The translations under genes and the position numbers were made by a program. This document shows positions 31,322 to 37,271 of a stretch of DNA of 64,000 bases, in pieces. The notes under the pieces are model-generated. The model was given only the letters and a program-made list of their open reading frames with translations. It did no database searches and had not been told where the DNA came from. The stretch is from positions 11,237 to 75,236 of the forward strand of contig JBBQFH010000005.1 in NCBI GenBank assembly GCA_038321865.1, written 5' to 3'. This DNA comes from Gemmatimonadales bacterium (lineage in GTDB: Bacteria > Gemmatimonadota > Gemmatimonadetes > Gemmatimonadales > GWC2-71-9). The stretch's first letter is position 1. Each line of letters starts with the position of its first letter.

Positions 31322-32068
31322 ATGCGCAAGCTGATCCTCTCCTGCATCCTGGTCGCCGTTCCCGCCGCGGCCGTCGCGCAGGTCGCCGGCCATTTTCCAC
31401 CGGACTCGCTGGTCAACACCAAGGTGATCGCGCACAACACACCGGTCATCCAGGTGGTGGGCATGATGCGGAACTTCGCCGGCGGGCTGGGCGTCCGCTG
31501 CCCGTACTGCCACGTCGGCGAGGAGGGCCGGCCGCTAGAGACCTTCGATTTCCCCAGCGACCAGAAGCGCACCAAGCTCGTCGCCCGGCAGATGATGCTG
31601 ATGGTCCAGGAGATCAACCGTCGGGTGGACACCCTGCCCGGCCGCACGAATCCCGGACTCCAGGTCACCTGCGCGACGTGCCACCACGGCGCCAGCCGCC
31701 CGGTGCCGCTCGGCATGCTCATCGCCGATGCCGCGACGGCCGGTGGTGCCGATTCCGCCGTCAGGACCTACCGCGCGCTACGCGAGCGGTATTACGGTCG
31801 CGACACCTACGACTTCAGTGAGAACTCGCTCAACACCGCCGCCTTCCGCCTGGCGCGCGCGAACAAGTACGACGAGGCGTTCGCGCTCCTTCGGCTGAAC
31901 GAGGAGTTCTATCCCACGTCGTCCGGCATGTACGTCTTCCGCGGCAATATCGAGCTCCTCAAGGGCGACACCACCGCCGCGGCGAAGGCGTTCGGTGAGG
32001 CGGTGCTGCGCGACCCGAAGAACCAGGAGGCGCAGGGGCGGCTGCGGGACATCGGCCGGAAGCCATAA
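31322..32068 (+). CDS. Diheme c-type cytochrome with C-terminal TPR-like region
   Basis: Signal peptide; CPYCH and CATCHHG; candidate Met ligands (MMRNF, ARQMM); TPR-like end. Confidence 0.88.
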   Translation: MRKLILSCILVAVPAAAVAQVAGHFPPDSLVNTKVIAHNTPVIQVVGMMRNFAGGLGVRCPYCHVGEEGRPLETFDFPSDQKRTKLVARQMMLMVQEINRRVDTLPGRTNPGLQVTCATCHHGASRPVPLGMLIADAATAGGADSAVRTYRALRERYYGRDTYDFSENSLNTAAFRLARANKYDEAFALLRLNEEFYPTSSGMYVFRGNIELLKGDTTAAAKAFGEAVLRDPKNQEAQGRLRDIGRKP

Positions 32069-32703: not shown

Positions 32704-33507
32704 ATGATCATCGGACTGGCGTCGCCGGGCGTGGCGGCCAGTCTGGAGGACGGCCTCGGGCGTATCGACCGGCTTCTGGCGGATGCATCGGGCCGGGGCG
32801 CCGAGATCGTGTGCTTCCCCGAGGCGTACCTCCCGGGACTGAGGGGTCAGGACTTCGACGTGCCGCCGTTCGGCGAGGCGCAGCAGGAGGAGACGCTCCA
32901 GGCCGTCGGCGACCTGGTTCGACGGCACGGAGTCACCACGATTCTCGGCATGGAACGCGTGACGCCGGCCGGCCGCCAGATCGCCGCCTTCGTCATCGAT
33001 CATCGCGGCCGGCTGCAGGGCTTTCAGACCAAGAACCAGCTCGATCCCACCGAAGACCGCCATTACATCCCTGGACACACTCGCCGGCTCTTCGAGGCCG
33101 GCGGCGTGAAATTCGGCATCGTGATCTGCCACGAGGGGTGGCGATATCCGGAGACGGTCCGCTGGGCGGCGGTTCGTGGCGCCAGGATCGTCTTCCACCC
33201 GCACCATGCGGGAAGCGACCGAACCGGGGCGCGCCCCCAAAGCTGGGGCGCCGCGGGCGGTGCCTACTACGAGAAGGCGATGATGCTCCGGAGCATCGAG
33301 AACACCATCTATTTCGCCAGCGTCAACTACGCGCTGCGGTTTCCGGAATCGGCCACCAGTCTGATCGAGCCGTCGGGCCAATGTGAGGCGTATCTGCCGT
33401 ACGGAGAGGAAGGGGTACTGGTGCGGGAGATCGATCCCGCCCGGGCGACCGGACTACTGGCCGGCCGGTACGCGCCCGACCGCTATCAGGACGAGAGCGT
33501 CGAATAG
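32704..33507 (+). CDS. Carbon-nitrogen hydrolase (nitrilase superfamily)
   Basis: Catalytic triad motifs CFPEAY, QTKNQ, VICHEG.RYPE. Confidence 0.9.
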   Translation: MIIGLASPGVAASLEDGLGRIDRLLADASGRGAEIVCFPEAYLPGLRGQDFDVPPFGEAQQEETLQAVGDLVRRHGVTTILGMERVTPAGRQIAAFVIDHRGRLQGFQTKNQLDPTEDRHYIPGHTRRLFEAGGVKFGIVICHEGWRYPETVRWAAVRGARIVFHPHHAGSDRTGARPQSWGAAGGAYYEKAMMLRSIENTIYFASVNYALRFPESATSLIEPSGQCEAYLPYGEEGVLVREIDPARATGLLAGRYAPDRYQDESVE

Positions 33508-34301
33508 CCGGCGGTCAGCGCCGGCCACTCCGCCGCATCGAACCGCAGGTGTGGGACGACACGGGCGCCGAGGGCGGCCGCGGCCGGCACCAGTCCGGCG
33601 TTGACGGCCGCCCCGCCCACCAGGATCGGTCCGGTGAAGGCGGGCGGGCGGGCGAACGCGTCGAGCAGGACGCGAAGTGCCGGAGTCTGTGAGGGCATGG
33701 AAATCGACAGGCCGACGGCTGTGCACCGCTCCGACAATGCCGCGTCGACGATGGCCTGGGGGCTGAATCCGTAACCCAGGACCGTGGTGCGCACGCCCAT
33801 GCTCTCGAATCCCAGGCTCGCGAAGCGAAGCCCGAGCATGTGCATGTTTCCCGGAACCGCGGCGATCAGGATCGTCGGTGCGTTCGGCGCCGGCGCGCTC
33901 AGCGCCGCCGCCTGAATGTGGCGCTCGATCAGATCGACCAGCGCCTCGCAGGCTTCGGTGAAGCGATGCTCTTCGCACACCGTCAGCAGGTTCGCTTCCC
34001 AGCGCCGGCCCACGGTGACCAGCTGGGGTCCGGCAAAGCCGAACAGCATGTCGAGCGGTCGGATGCCCGCCGCAAACCCTTCGACAGCGAGCGCTTCCAT
34101 CTCGAGTGGCGCGCCCTTGCGCCCCGCAGCCCAGAACCGGCGGTTGAGGTCCGCGAGATACCGCATTCGCCGCTCCTGCTCTCCGGTCCACTGCAGGACG
34201 GAATCGCCGCAGGCATCGCAGAGCCCGTGCGATACTTCATGGGTCTCGTACGGCGAACTCTCACCCTGGAACCGCTGACAGTACGCGCACCATTTGATCA
34301 C
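33486..34301 (-). CDS. Cobalamin-binding protein (CarH-type helical bundle plus Rossmann domain) with N-terminal Cys4 zinc-finger-like motif
   Basis: WCAYCQ...SHGLCDAC; VGRRWEANLLTVCEEH (W-x9-EH); GNMHMLG; VGLSIS; ILVGG; GTG start overlaps upstream TGA (GTGA 34298-34301). Confidence 0.82.
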   Translation of the reverse strand: MIKWCAYCQRFQGESSPYETHEVSHGLCDACGDSVLQWTGEQERRMRYLADLNRRFWAAGRKGAPLEMEALAVEGFAAGIRPLDMLFGFAGPQLVTVGRRWEANLLTVCEEHRFTEACEALVDLIERHIQAAALSAPAPNAPTILIAAVPGNMHMLGLRFASLGFESMGVRTTVLGYGFSPQAIVDAALSERCTAVGLSISMPSQTPALRVLLDAFARPPAFTGPILVGGAAVNAGLVPAAAALGARVVPHLRFDAAEWPALTAGYSTLSS

Positions 34302-35539
34302 GAGACACTCGCCGCTGCGTCCAGCGCGACGGACAGCTCGCGCACCGCCGCCCGCCACTCGTTGCCGAAACGGGTCTCATCGGTCAGCCACGACTCGATG
34401 GCCGCGTAGGCGCCGGGCACGCCGGCCGCCTCGTCGGCATGCGCCGAGGCCAGCAGCGGCACCGCACCATGGAGGGCGGAAAGGCGTTGGTCGAATCGGG
34501 CGTTCAGGTCTTCCACCGCCGCATCGGGCAAGTGAGCCCGCCGGCTTGCGCCCAGCTCCCCCACCACGCGCCTGAAGCTGGCGGTCTCCCGGGTGCGCGC
34601 CGGCGCCGCGGATTCTATCTCCGTCGCCAGCTCACGCATGTGTGTCTCGAGAATCAGCGTGGGAATGCCGCGGCTCGCCAGCACCGTGCGTAGCCACGCG
34701 ATGCTTCGGGCGATGGATTCATACTGGAGCGGCATGAGGGTAAGCAACCAGCAGCTGTCGCTCGCGGTGAACCGCCGGCCGCGTTCGCCGAAGCGCCGCT
34801 CGAGGTACGGATACCGTTCCCGCGCACGGACCCCCGCACGGATCGCGATGGCGATCTCGGCCGGATCGTCCGGCAATGCGTGCCGGCCCGCCTCGGGATT
34901 GAGCGCCGTGAGCTGCACGGTGACGTTGGCGGCGGTGAAGGGAAAAAGTGCCAGCACGATGGTCTGCAGCCCCGCGAAGGCGGCGACCGCGGCCGCCTCG
35001 ATTCTGCCTCCTTCGGGGTCAGTCAGCCGGATCGCGTCGAGGTCGGTCACGAACCGCGTCCAGGCCCTGCGGGTCTCCTTGCCGTAGCAGCCGAAGTAGC
35101 GAAGGGCGTCCGGCGCCACGTCGAGCGACTTGGCAAAGAGCGACTTCAGCGCGATACCACCGTTCTGCGAACCCTCGAACACGTACAGATAGCCGAGCAG
35201 CTCGATCTCGGGTGACTGCACGAGCTGGTCGGCCATCGCGAGTGCGGCGCGGACGGCGGGATCGATCGCCGTAAGGTGCCCTTCGGGCCGCAATGCCAGG
35301 TCTTCGATCAGGTGCGGCAGTTTTGCGAGATCGTCCCGCCAGACCCGTCCGACCCGGGGGTCCCGGGCGGTCGAGAGGCCGCGCTCGAGCACGGCATGGA
35401 TGATCGCAAGACAGTGGAGATACGATTCGGCCGCGGCGGCGGGCAGCGTCCCCGCCCGCAGCGCGTCGTAGAAGGGCGTCGCCTCGATGCCGTCATGAGC
35501 GTTCGATGTCGCCGCCTGCAGGCGGGCTCTCACGGACAT
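34298..35539 (-). CDS. Biliverdin-producing heme oxygenase fused to a C-terminal helical (putative phycobiliprotein/globin-like) domain
   Basis: L..AT..AH..IE..PF (proximal His), LLGYLYVFEGSQNGG, RYF..Y, W..F...LD, A.AAF; about 210 extra residues including YPYLERRFGERGRRFTASDSCWL and WLRTVLASRGIP; AAGGA RBS before ATG 35539. Confidence 0.85.
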   Translation of the reverse strand: MSVRARLQAATSNAHDGIEATPFYDALRAGTLPAAAAESYLHCLAIIHAVLERGLSTARDPRVGRVWRDDLAKLPHLIEDLALRPEGHLTAIDPAVRAALAMADQLVQSPEIELLGYLYVFEGSQNGGIALKSLFAKSLDVAPDALRYFGCYGKETRRAWTRFVTDLDAIRLTDPEGGRIEAAAVAAFAGLQTIVLALFPFTAANVTVQLTALNPEAGRHALPDDPAEIAIAIRAGVRARERYPYLERRFGERGRRFTASDSCWLLTLMPLQYESIARSIAWLRTVLASRGIPTLILETHMRELATEIESAAPARTRETASFRRVVGELGASRRAHLPDAAVEDLNARFDQRLSALHGAVPLLASAHADEAAGVPGAYAAIESWLTDETRFGNEWRAAVRELSVALDAAASVS

Positions 35540-35724
35540 GCACATCCTTGATGCCGCCCGGGACGGCGGAGATTGCGGGGCTTCGCTACCGGATGGAACA
35601 TAGCGGGTGGTGGACGCGCTCGCCTTTCACGCAGTGCCAGCCGCGCGATGAACTCCTCATCCCCGGGCGCATAGCTCCGTGCAATACGAAGGAACTCGCT
35701 CCCGCTTCACACGGTCCGGTCGGG

Positions 35725-36207
35725 CTACCGGTTGAGGGCGCCCCGGATGCGGCCAAGATGGTGATAGCTGTGGCGGACGGCGTGATCCTCGAGCACGAAC
35801 TGGCTGGTGAGCGGCGCGTCGAAGTAGAGTGAGACGGGCGCTGCCCGGTCCAGCTCGGCGTCGCTCAGCGCGCGGATCGCCGCGGCCGCGGCCGCGCTGT
35901 TGGTGCGCAGCAGCGCCAGCGCCTCCTCCCTGGTCACGGCGTCGTTGTCCCGCGCGTGCCCCGCGTTCATCGCATGAACGTCGGCCATCGTCACTCCGGC
36001 CACCGGCTTGCCCGCCGCGACGGTCTGGGCCAGCTGGATTTCGAGCGGATACACGCTGGCGACATGGTGCACGATGACGCCGATCTTGCGGCCATCGCCT
36101 GGTACCGGCGTCCGCCATTCAGCGTCTGTGAGCGTGGCGGCCAGGCTGGCGAGTGCGTGTGCGCCCTGTTCGAGACAGTCAGCCAGGGCATCGGAACGTT
36201 TGCTCAT
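35725..36207 (-). CDS. DinB/MDMPI-like four-helix protein
   Basis: LTDAEW.TP, GVIVHHVA, LSDAELDR, HAVRHSYHHL..I. Confidence 0.8.
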   Translation of the reverse strand: MSKRSDALADCLEQGAHALASLAATLTDAEWRTPVPGDGRKIGVIVHHVASVYPLEIQLAQTVAAGKPVAGVTMADVHAMNAGHARDNDAVTREEALALLRTNSAAAAAAIRALSDAELDRAAPVSLYFDAPLTSQFVLEDHAVRHSYHHLGRIRGALNR

Positions 36208-36425
36208 GGTCAGTCCACTCCGTTAAGAGTCGGGGCGCGCCCTCGTGGCGCGAGAGCCAAGGTACGATGGTGTCGCCCATTCACAAGAGACTGATCGCCC
36301 TGCACCGGAGGGTGGGGTTGTGGCGGGACCGCCCGGAACGGTACTGTAGGACGGCGGACTGCAAACCTCTCTCGAGAAACGTGCGTGAGGGCCGAGGCCG
36401 CGTTCATCCAGGAGAATCTCGATTA

Positions 36426-37271
36426 ATGGACCCCAGCGCTTCCCCCAACGCCGCCTTCGTCGGGTCCATCCCCGAGTACTATCACCGGCACCTCGGGCCG
36501 CTCCTCTTCGCGGACTACGCGGCCGACCTCGCGGCGCGGATGCGCTTCGCCGAGGGGCGCGGGTCGGCGGTGCTGGAGCTGGCAGCCGGCACCGGCATCC
36601 TCACCCAGCAGGTGCTCGCGCGGCTGCCGGAGGGCGCCACACTGACCGCGACCGACCTGAACGCGCCGATGCTCGACGTGGCCCGGCACCGGCTCGGGAC
36701 CACCGGCCGAGGGGAAGGGGTGACCTGGCAGGTGGCGGACGCCACGGCGCTTCCCTTTCCGGATTCGGCGTTCGATGTCGTCGTCTGCCAGTTCGGCGTC
36801 ATGTTTTTCCCCGACAAGCCACGCGCGGCCGGCGAGGCGTTCCGCGTGCTTCGGCCCGGCGGCCAATGGCTGCTGAACGTCTGGGGCTCGTGGGACGAGA
36901 ACCCCTTCGCGCGCATCGTGCATGAGACGATCGCCCGTTTCTTTCCCGACGATCCGCCCGGGTTTTACCGGGTGCCGTTCGGCTTTTCCGATCCCGCCGG
37001 GCTCGAGGCGATGACCAAGGGGGCGGGGTTCGCGCGCCTGGAGCTGGTGACGCTGGACCGCCTCGTCGAAGCGCCGTCGGCCGCCGACGCCGCGCTGGGC
37101 CTGGTGCTCGGCAATCCCGTGATCACGGCAATCGAGGAGCGTGCCACCGCCAATTCGCCGGAAATCGTGTGGGCGGTCGCGGAGGCGCTGGCGCGCGCCT
37201 TCGGCGATCACCCGCTGCGATTGCCGACCAGGGTCCGGGTCATGTCCGCCACGCGGCCGCAGCATGGCTGA
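36426..37271 (+). CDS. Class I SAM-dependent methyltransferase
   Basis: F.GSIPE.Y...LGP, VLELAAGTG, TDLN.PML, ADA..LPF.D..FD, CQFGVMFFPD, RVLRPGG. Confidence 0.92.
   Translation: MDPSASPNAAFVGSIPEYYHRHLGPLLFADYAADLAARMRFAEGRGSAVLELAAGTGILTQQVLARLPEGATLTATDLNAPMLDVARHRLGTTGRGEGVTWQVADATALPFPDSAFDVVVCQFGVMFFPDKPRAAGEAFRVLRPGGQWLLNVWGSWDENPFARIVHETIARFFPDDPPGFYRVPFGFSDPAGLEAMTKGAGFARLELVTLDRLVEAPSAADAALGLVLGNPVITAIEERATANSPEIVWAVAEALARAFGDHPLRLPTRVRVMSATRPQHG

Follow-up and report, generated by a model that had tools for sequence, protein, structure and literature searches.

The 64,000-nucleotide stretch of a Gemmatimonadales genome analysed here (contig JBBQFH010000005.1; hereafter the window) carries on its reverse strand two overlapping genes, one for a haem oxygenase (HO) fused to a photoglobin-like globin (HO-photoglobin, P0002; 34298..35545) and one for a cobalamin (B12)-binding domain (CBD) of the light-sensing type headed by a zinc finger-like motif of four cysteines (ZnF-CBD, P0001; 33486..34301). 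Our favoured reading, to which we assign a probability of roughly 0.55, is that the two proteins constitute a split, photocobilin-like sensor with the Cys4 finger as its interaction or output module. The parts of this reading are not equally secure. That P0001 is a B12-binding protein of the photosensor type with a metal-binding Cys4 finger is very probable, a functional partnership of ZnF-CBD with HO-photoglobin is likely, and the role of the finger as output module is put forward tentatively.

In the mechanism that we propose, the four-helix bundle of P0001 (GxxW-x9-EH) and its Rossmann domain, with His154 as lower axial ligand, would bind adenosylcobalamin (AdoCbl) as in CarH and the photocobilins; the haem oxygenase of P0002 would turn haem into biliverdin, and the photoglobin-type globin fused to it would hold that pigment. 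The two polypeptides, made in fixed proportion, would dock like the CBD and globin of the photocobilin structure 8J2W, to give a pair that supplies its own bilin and may respond both to green light (through B12) and to red light (through biliverdin). The finger, at the place of the DNA-binding domain of CarH, could then relay a light-dependent change of assembly to a partner, for which the adjacent two-component or cyclic di-GMP (c-di-GMP) proteins of other genomes are the likely candidates. B12 photoreception is a young field, and to our knowledge the receptors characterised so far are limited to CarH-type repressors, AerR-type antirepressors and the fused photocobilins.

The ZnF-CBD protein and its family

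P0001 (271 residues) begins with a GTG codon, contained in the four nucleotides GTGA (34298..34301) that its start shares with the stop of the HO-photoglobin gene. Residues 1-35 (34197..34301) make up the finger, in which KWCAYCQ (3-9) and SHGLCDAC (24-31) are separated by 14 residues; its cysteines are C5, C8, C28 and C31, and W4, Q9, G13, E14, P17 and H25 are also conserved. There follow a four-helix bundle (residues 40-134; 33900..34184), recognised from predicted helices and from the Pfam family B12-binding_2 (PF02607, residues 54-125, E 1.7e-6), and a Rossmann-type B12-binding domain (residues 143-250; 33552..33875), recognised by Foldseek and by PF02310 (residues 143-234, E 1.1e-9). Both Pfam matches are over cut-off, and residues 1-50 gave no Pfam match even at E<=1. 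In the bundle, W101-EANLLTVCE-E111-H112 (33966..34001) is an exact W-x9-EH, to which G98-R-R-W101 adds GxxW. The Rossmann domain contains N152-M-H154-M-L-G157 (33831..33848), with the predicted lower axial His and with Asn replacing Asp or Glu, as well as SIS at 198-200 and ILVGG at 226-230. The preliminary description of this gene had named both halves of the finger, the exact W-x9-EH, the Asn in NMHMLG, SIS and ILVGG, and all of them are present in the translation.

Homologues of the protein share the start M-I-x-W-C with P0001. The public copy of the window protein (P0003) has 226 residues and begins at Met46, so that the deposited gene call is without the finger. P0010 and P0013 are likewise short; gene calls truncated in this way may keep the finger out of sight in databases.

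Of 7999 candidates scored in a word-indexed search, 22 relatives reached E<=0.001; most of them have 255-277 residues and are aligned with the query from its beginning. In an alignment of 16 sequences the N-terminus is conserved as MIxWCAYCQxFxGE..P......SHGxCxxC. An exhaustive search with a profile, covering 1.84 billion cluster representatives, gave 336 matches at E<=1e-30 (50%-identity clusters), and 16807 proteins at E<=0.001, which comprise B12 domains of all kinds; among the 150 matches listed, nearly all were aligned from profile position 1. The family is large and spread across soil and sediment phyla.

Conservation was assessed on 142 representatives, one per 50%-identity cluster, with obvious fragments and N-terminally shifted rows omitted. 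W4, the four cysteines and H154 are each present in 142/142; H25 and N152 are found in 139 each, E111 in 136, W101 in 128 and H112 in 126. The pattern G..W-x9-EH matches 113/142, so that most homologues keep W-x9-EH, whose absence from them had been raised beforehand as a possibility, and GxxH (G151-N-M-H154 in P0001) occurs in 110/142. Because they are conserved across these representatives, the finger and the B12 features are taken to be real and under selection; similarly, Asn152 is a trait of the family and no local oddity, since 139 members carry it. According to the text of PMC11796333, the signature of light-responsive CarH-type CBDs consists of GxxW, EH, GxxH and GxxxP; W-x9-EH and the lower-ligand His motif belong to the light-responsive signature as described there and in PMC10979010, and the latter text places W-x9-EH in contact with the adenosyl group in CarH and photocobilins. 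By homology, His154 would be the lower ligand of the cobalt.

An AlphaFold2 model of P0001, built on the 142-row alignment, has a pLDDT of 92.7 and a pTM of 0.88. The finger is predicted as strands 2-5, 11-14 and 23-26 with a helix at 29-35 (pLDDT ~89), and we read this order of secondary structure as that of a zinc-ribbon or treble-clef unit. In the model, a linker of four residues connects it with the first bundle helix (predicted helices 40-61, 65-77, 82-102 and 108-134), after which comes the Rossmann domain. The finger is thus attached where CarH carries its DNA-binding domain, and Pfam finds no MerR domain in the protein; the earlier proposal of a CarH-like B12 domain with a Cys4 finger in place of the MerR domain is borne out in this respect. 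The solved structure closest to the family profile is the photocobilin SasPcob (8J2X/8J2W, E 1.7e-17), followed by CarH (5C8A, E 8.6e-11) and AerR (7TE2, E 3.2e-8), and Foldseek with the P0001 model also ranks 8J2W best (E 1.2e-10, TM 0.63). With W-x9-EH and the lower-ligand His, the module is of the CarH/photocobilin type; the NCBIfam model for CarH itself (NF052513) scores 20.5 bits vs a cut-off of 400.

The HO-photoglobin partner and the regularity of the pairing

The preliminary description missed the translationally coupled gene upstream, which encodes P0002, a protein of 415 residues made up of a haem oxygenase, a photoglobin-like globin and a tail of helices. Its haem oxygenase part (residues 1-205; 34931..35545) matches PF01126 with 52.7 bits vs a cut-off of 23; the family profile finds haem oxygenases in the PDB at E 3.6e-17, and structural alignment (VIA-align) gives Z ~24 with a root-mean-square deviation (rmsd) of 2.3-2.4 A over ~200 residues. 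H17, the predicted proximal His, is at least 90% conserved and pairs in a weak fragment alignment with His23 of HemO (1J77), which we take to be the haem ligand of that enzyme. G118, Y121, E124 and S126 of the motif LGxLYVxEGSxxGG, in the Gly-rich distal helix, are invariant in 37 homologues. Of 8000 candidates scored against P0002, 183 proteins reached E<=0.001; most have ~420 residues, and for several of them the source gives the name 'biliverdin-producing heme oxygenase'.

Residues 225-337 (34535..34873) belong to no Pfam family, and the sequence and family-profile searches of P0002 against the PDB return haem oxygenases only; Foldseek with the whole model likewise fills its list with haem oxygenase chains, and the globin is recognised by fold only. 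The AlphaFold2 model of P0002 has a pLDDT of 91.1. In a fold search covering 48161 representative chains, the best match of residues 225-337 outside the haem oxygenase fold is 8j2w_B, the biliverdin-binding domain of SasPcob (234-345; 107 residues aligned, rmsd 2.3 A), at Z 11.7, a score that is not decisive alone. After it come allophycocyanin and phycobilisome chains (Z 10.3-10.7) and, further down, phycoerythrins, RsbR and a sensor globin, a ranked list that is coherent in itself. D263, W284, R292 and G293 are invariant in the 37 homologues; D263 lies roughly at the place of SasPcob Asp270, the conserved Asp that holds biliverdin there, as judged from the aligned ranges (225-337 vs 234-345) only. 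The C-terminal tail (residues 338-415; 34301..34534) is predicted by AlphaFold2 to form four helices (341-351, 361-373, 379-387 and 395-414); it is of no known family and is kept in the homologues. A C-terminal Cys (...SC or ...AC) was observed in 20/37 HO-photoglobin homologues, and P0002 ends in Ser.

There is published precedent for both the architecture and its neighbours. The Heme_oxygenase-photoglobin architecture is already listed by Schneider et al. (PMC8717448), in whose text stand-alone photoglobins nearly always adjoin genes for B12-binding_2/B12-binding and two-component proteins. In the account of Zhang et al. (PMC10979010), fused CBD-photoglobin proteins bind AdoCbl next to biliverdin, and their quaternary structure changes in light. 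A prediction of the P0002-P0001 complex gave ipSAE values of 0.00 and 0.01 vs a mark of 0.32; it was run without controls and is uninformative either way.

The same arrangement recurs in distant genomes. Of 19 genome loci found with the family pattern, six (L001, L004, L005, L006, L007 and L012), from Bdellovibrionota, Acidobacteriota and Myxococcota, have an HO-photoglobin gene whose end meets the start of ZnF-CBD, and one further paired genome lies in the phylum of the window (L024), so that the pairing spans Gemmatimonadota, Acidobacteriota, Myxococcota and Bdellovibrionota. We also collected 80 metagenome loci seeded solely on the first eight residues of the finger, 79 of which run on into the CBD of ZnF-CBD. 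A photoglobin gene stands upstream on the same strand in 20/80; it is convergent downstream in six and divergent in one, and two loci have an HO fragment only. In 25/27 same-strand pairs the start of ZnF-CBD overlaps the stop of its partner by 4, 7 or 8 nucleotides (nt).

In a sample of 401 genomes from the phylum of the window, 26 gave a match at E<=1e-20, 18 of them plain haem oxygenases. Full-length HO-photoglobin occurs in G000 (the genome of the window), G240, G339, G337 and G298, and partial or variant forms in G404, G126 and G116; ZnF-CBD stands directly behind it only in G000 and G240. The single genome of the same genus in the sample had none of these. A quick maximum-likelihood tree was made of 55 rows; these remained when 85 full-length proteins, fragments of <230 residues being left aside, were made non-redundant at 90% identity. 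Adjacency to photoglobin requires nine changes on this tree, vs a mean of 15.2 in shuffled data, and none of 500 shuffles was as low; the window protein is sister to the photoglobin-linked L001 with support 99. The pairing is therefore frequent, tightly coupled and phylogenetically clustered, yet the family also lives without the partner.

The finger in other proteins and the genomic neighbours

A 40-residue profile of the finger was run over 401 Acidobacteriota and 301 Myxococcota genomes and found matches in 9 and 17 of them, respectively, ZnF-CBD genes included; the weaker matches (E 1e-4 to 1e-3) depend on the Cys/His pattern, and their homology is less certain. Related fingers occur alone in proteins of 40-120 residues. 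Two proteins of 111-114 residues (L052, 1267-1602, reverse strand; L053, 1474-1818, forward strand) have CAWCQKYxG...SHGICxxC, no B12 domain and no Pfam or NCBIfam family, and stand-alone fingers of 40-65 residues are encoded at L153, L154 and L156-L158. The small finger proteins (~40-114 residues) consist of the finger alone or of the finger plus a short Arg-rich tail. In a family of ~165-200 residues the finger precedes a PAS-like domain (L055 and L059 in Acidobacteriota; L148-L152 in Myxococcota), as it does in L057; in L057 and L059 Pfam recognises the PAS domain only weakly. This finger-PAS family has a second conserved Cys cluster, ECxxxR...GCGxxVHCxxCTxR, and may be a metal or Fe-S sensor. 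Finally, an open reading frame of 151 residues from Acidobacteriota (L058:1168-1620, reverse strand) joins a CxxC...HSHGICPAC finger to a PAS domain like that of photoactive yellow protein (PYP), with the chromophore motif NFFTDVAPCT (TIGR02373, E 8.2e-30, 103 bits vs an equivalog cut-off of 143). Because it is found alone and before PAS and PYP-like domains as well as before the CBD, the finger is an independent module and not peculiar to B12 proteins.

Zinc is most likely the metal of the finger, in what its sequence suggests is a structural site. A role as a DNA- or nucleic-acid-binding finger was set aside, the finger of the CBD family being acidic on average (mean net charge -0.75, range -6 to +4). 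The ZAS anti-sigma motif, Hx3Cx2C, was rejected on spacing, which is H-x2-C-x2-C in P0001. A search of the ESM Atlas with residues 1-42 gave a best score of 0.82, under the meaningful level, and a word-index search for longer finger-bearing proteins yielded no candidates, which is weak evidence. It might be imagined that the finger is a hitherto undescribed module for output or adaptation, movable between proteins, through which the unrelated small sensor domains behind it converge on one common target. Here it would sit atop a self-contained green/red switch of two proteins in which the haem oxygenase makes the bilin and the globin fused to it presents this pigment to the B12 domain, with Asn-x-His as a new ligand environment for B12; we regard this broader proposal as doubtful.

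Genes for two-component or c-di-GMP proteins adjoin ZnF-CBD, with or without HO-photoglobin, at L007, L009, L011, L083, L096, L103, L105, L108, L126, L129 and L140. They encode a receiver domain (REC) protein at L007, HK-REC-Hpt (HK, histidine kinase) and REC-EAL proteins at L009 and L105, PAS-HK-REC proteins at L083 and L096, and a PAS-HK protein at L140; at L103 a REC-HD_5 gene lies directly downstream of ZnF-CBD. One protein of 407 residues (P0142) is a ZnF-CBD fused to a C-terminal REC domain. The remaining neighbours are unrelated housekeeping genes.

In the window, the sensor gene pair is flanked by a DinB-family gene upstream and by a convergent nitrilase-type gene (CN_hydrolase; 32704-33507, forward strand), which the 3' end of ZnF-CBD overlaps by 22 nt (33486-33507). 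A scan of 33300-36500 for promoters and terminators found no sites. The window also encodes, 1.4 kb from the sensor genes, a protein of 248 residues (31322-32068, forward strand) with a match to the family of photosynthetic reaction-centre cytochrome c subunits (PF02276, E 1.4e-9) and a TPR repeat.

The assembly of the window's genome is 89.85% complete. It encodes a canonical CarH/LitR with MerR and B12-binding domains, W-x9-EH and ExHxxG (L021:1102-2058; G000:C13:65213-65704), and hence the organism possesses two distinct proteins of the B12 photoreceptor type. The genome has a PduO-type adenosyltransferase, no CobA-type transferase was found, and AdoCbl can be obtained from imported cobalamin. 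Among public sequencing runs, none of RNA was listed for this DNA; one DNA run, which may be the source sample, and one soil run with a small share were. Neither a second haem oxygenase (at E<=1e-20) nor a PHY domain was found in the genome, and from the latter result no bacteriophytochrome was found that might use the biliverdin.

Alternative explanations and relation to known systems

Several observations weigh against the reading as a split sensor. The partner is not obligatory: 51/80 metagenome loci are without an adjacent photoglobin, as are 22 of the 39 that are well flanked (700 nt or more on the upstream side, 1000 nt or more downstream), the other 17 having photoglobin or an HO fragment adjoining. 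Of ten genomes with an unlinked ZnF-CBD, whose completeness was not reported, one has an HO-photoglobin elsewhere, and searches of the other nine found none; the family can thus work without the partner. Conversely, HO-photoglobin occurs without ZnF-CBD at L026-L028, and at L030 (G126, in the phylum of the window) a CBD that lacks the finger comes after it, and then a histidine kinase, a conventional output. The HO-photoglobin at L030 is apparently frameshifted between HO and globin, and the CBD there has W-x9-EH and a normal ExHxxG. The published signature has Asp or Glu before the His, and D/E-x-H-x-x-G is found in 0/142 representatives; literal GxxxP occurs in only 10/142, P0001 having G176-YGFS-P181 (G-x4-P), and a Pro lies 22-30 residues past the His in 117/142. 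The fold match of the globin, an all-helical domain with Z below 13, could reflect a common helical arrangement, and the CxQD of photoglobins reads T260-A-S-D263 in P0002, with the Asp kept and the Cys absent, if the positions are indeed equivalent. No signalling gene adjoins the sensor pair in the window. It should also be noted that we infer cofactor binding, the light response and the complex from genes and models.

Some of these observations would suit a self-sufficient B12 photoreceptor of the AerR style, whose finger acts on a regulator and to which HO-photoglobin is separate or loosely coupled and no physical partner. The loci and genomes that lack the partner are what this explanation would predict, and the finger and motifs are equally conserved in unlinked members. 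We nevertheless think it unlikely, given the overlap of stop and start in nearly all same-strand pairs, the recurrence of the pairing over four phyla, the photocobilin CBD as closest solved relative and the association of photoglobins with B12 domains reported in PMC8717448. The preliminary description had suggested an AerR-style antirepressor or a redox-sensitive receptor; neither was substantiated, no repressor partner having been found and sequence giving no view of the metal or its redox behaviour, and no CrtJ/PpsR-type gene is present among the scanned neighbours in the window.

Oxygen and redox chemistry play a part in haem oxygenase and in B12 photochemistry alike, and the Cys4 site could be a redox element, in the form of a rubredoxin-like Fe centre or of a Zn-thiolate switch sensitive to oxidation, that joins redox to light or exchanges electrons with photolysed cobalamin. 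The two CxxC pairs, the flanking aromatic residue and the near-invariant His25 would fit Fe or Zn, and related fingers stand on PAS domains with a further Cys-rich cluster. However, Gly is not conserved after the second Cys of each pair (Q9 follows C8), as it is in what we take to be the rubredoxin knuckles; the metals are indistinguishable by sequence, and no ferredoxin or reductase genes adjoin among the neighbours scanned. We therefore hold a redox role to be improbable. Less probable again is that ZnF-CBD senses the availability or type of cobalamin in the dark. The Asn and the loose GxxxP do depart from the validated light signature as set out in PMC11796333, and the genome already has its canonical CarH; against this, most of the family keeps G..W-x9-EH, a motif that contacts the adenosyl group in CarH and photocobilins according to PMC10979010, and P0001 is associated with a bilin-binding globin and with PYP-like finger relatives. 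Least probable of all is a corrinoid methyl carrier of a methyltransferase system, for which we see very little chance. One source gives 'MtbC1' names, both Pfam domains also occur in MtaC/MtbC/MttC, and there are weak NCBIfam matches; these score 15.4 bits vs a cut-off of 215.3 (pyl_corrinoid) and 14 vs 350 (MtbC), far below cut-off, and no methyltransferase genes lie among the window neighbours or among those scanned at other loci (36 open reading frames in one set, 84 of the 125 called in another). W-x9-EH is present and photoreceptors rank first in the PDB. The preliminary description had itself allowed that homologues might act as methyltransferase corrinoid proteins, and nothing of the kind was seen.

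The reading as a split, photocobilin-like sensor is a variant of a known theme, since the HO-photoglobin architecture and its B12 neighbours have already been published. What appears to be new is the union, in one family, of the light-sensing B12 signature with an invariant Cys4 finger and an Asn in the His-ligand motif. No paper was found on a zinc finger or ribbon on B12-binding photoreceptors or on PYP. The word 'zinc' is absent from the main texts of PMC8717448, PMC10151467, PMC10979010 and PMC11796333, whose supplementary figures may show the finger; the finger, the Asn-x-His variant and the finger on PAS/PYP-like sensors were not found in those texts. Nor is the zinc finger-PYP architecture mentioned in the consulted text of the PYP survey PMC9664959 ('zinc', 0 occurrences). 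A photocobilin split by nature and provided with its own source of bilin would be tractable for studies of B12/biliverdin docking and signalling and might serve as a compact optogenetic part. The related fingers of PYP-like and PAS sensors may be a sign that small stand-alone sensors signal through a common route.

Because its gene is coupled to that of HO-photoglobin, ZnF-CBD is grouped here with the photoglobin and photocobilin systems and not with CarH or AerR. It resembles AerR/PpaA, the antirepressors of CrtJ/PpsR (7TE2), in being a stand-alone CBD for which a protein-protein contact is proposed, and differs in that the match is weaker (E 3.2e-8). With CarH/LitR (5C8A, 5C8D) it shares the two-domain CBD, W-x9-EH, the His as predicted lower ligand and an extra N-terminal module on the first helix of the bundle; in place of the MerR helix-turn-helix, however, there is an acidic Cys4 finger, and in place of Glu an Asn. 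The photoglobin and BBAG-2 globins beside B12-binding proteins (PMC8717448; PMC10151467) provide the precedent for the HO-photoglobin architecture and for its adjacency to a B12 gene, although no finger on the B12 partner is described in their main texts. The BBAG-2 globins have RGMC in the text of PMC10151467, where P0002 would have RG[IM]P if the positions correspond. The likeness is closest to the photocobilins (SasPcob, 8J2W/8J2X; AbPcob, 8J2Y; as presented in PMC10979010), which have the nearest CBD by profile and by fold, W-x9-EH and the lower His, and whose biliverdin-binding domain, that of 8J2W, is the best match of the partner globin. In photocobilins, CBD and globin are on one chain; here they are on two polypeptides, P0001 ending after its Rossmann domain, the globin shares its chain with a haem oxygenase and a tail of helices, and the CBD carries an N-terminal Cys4 finger and has Asn for the Asp or Glu of E/DxH.

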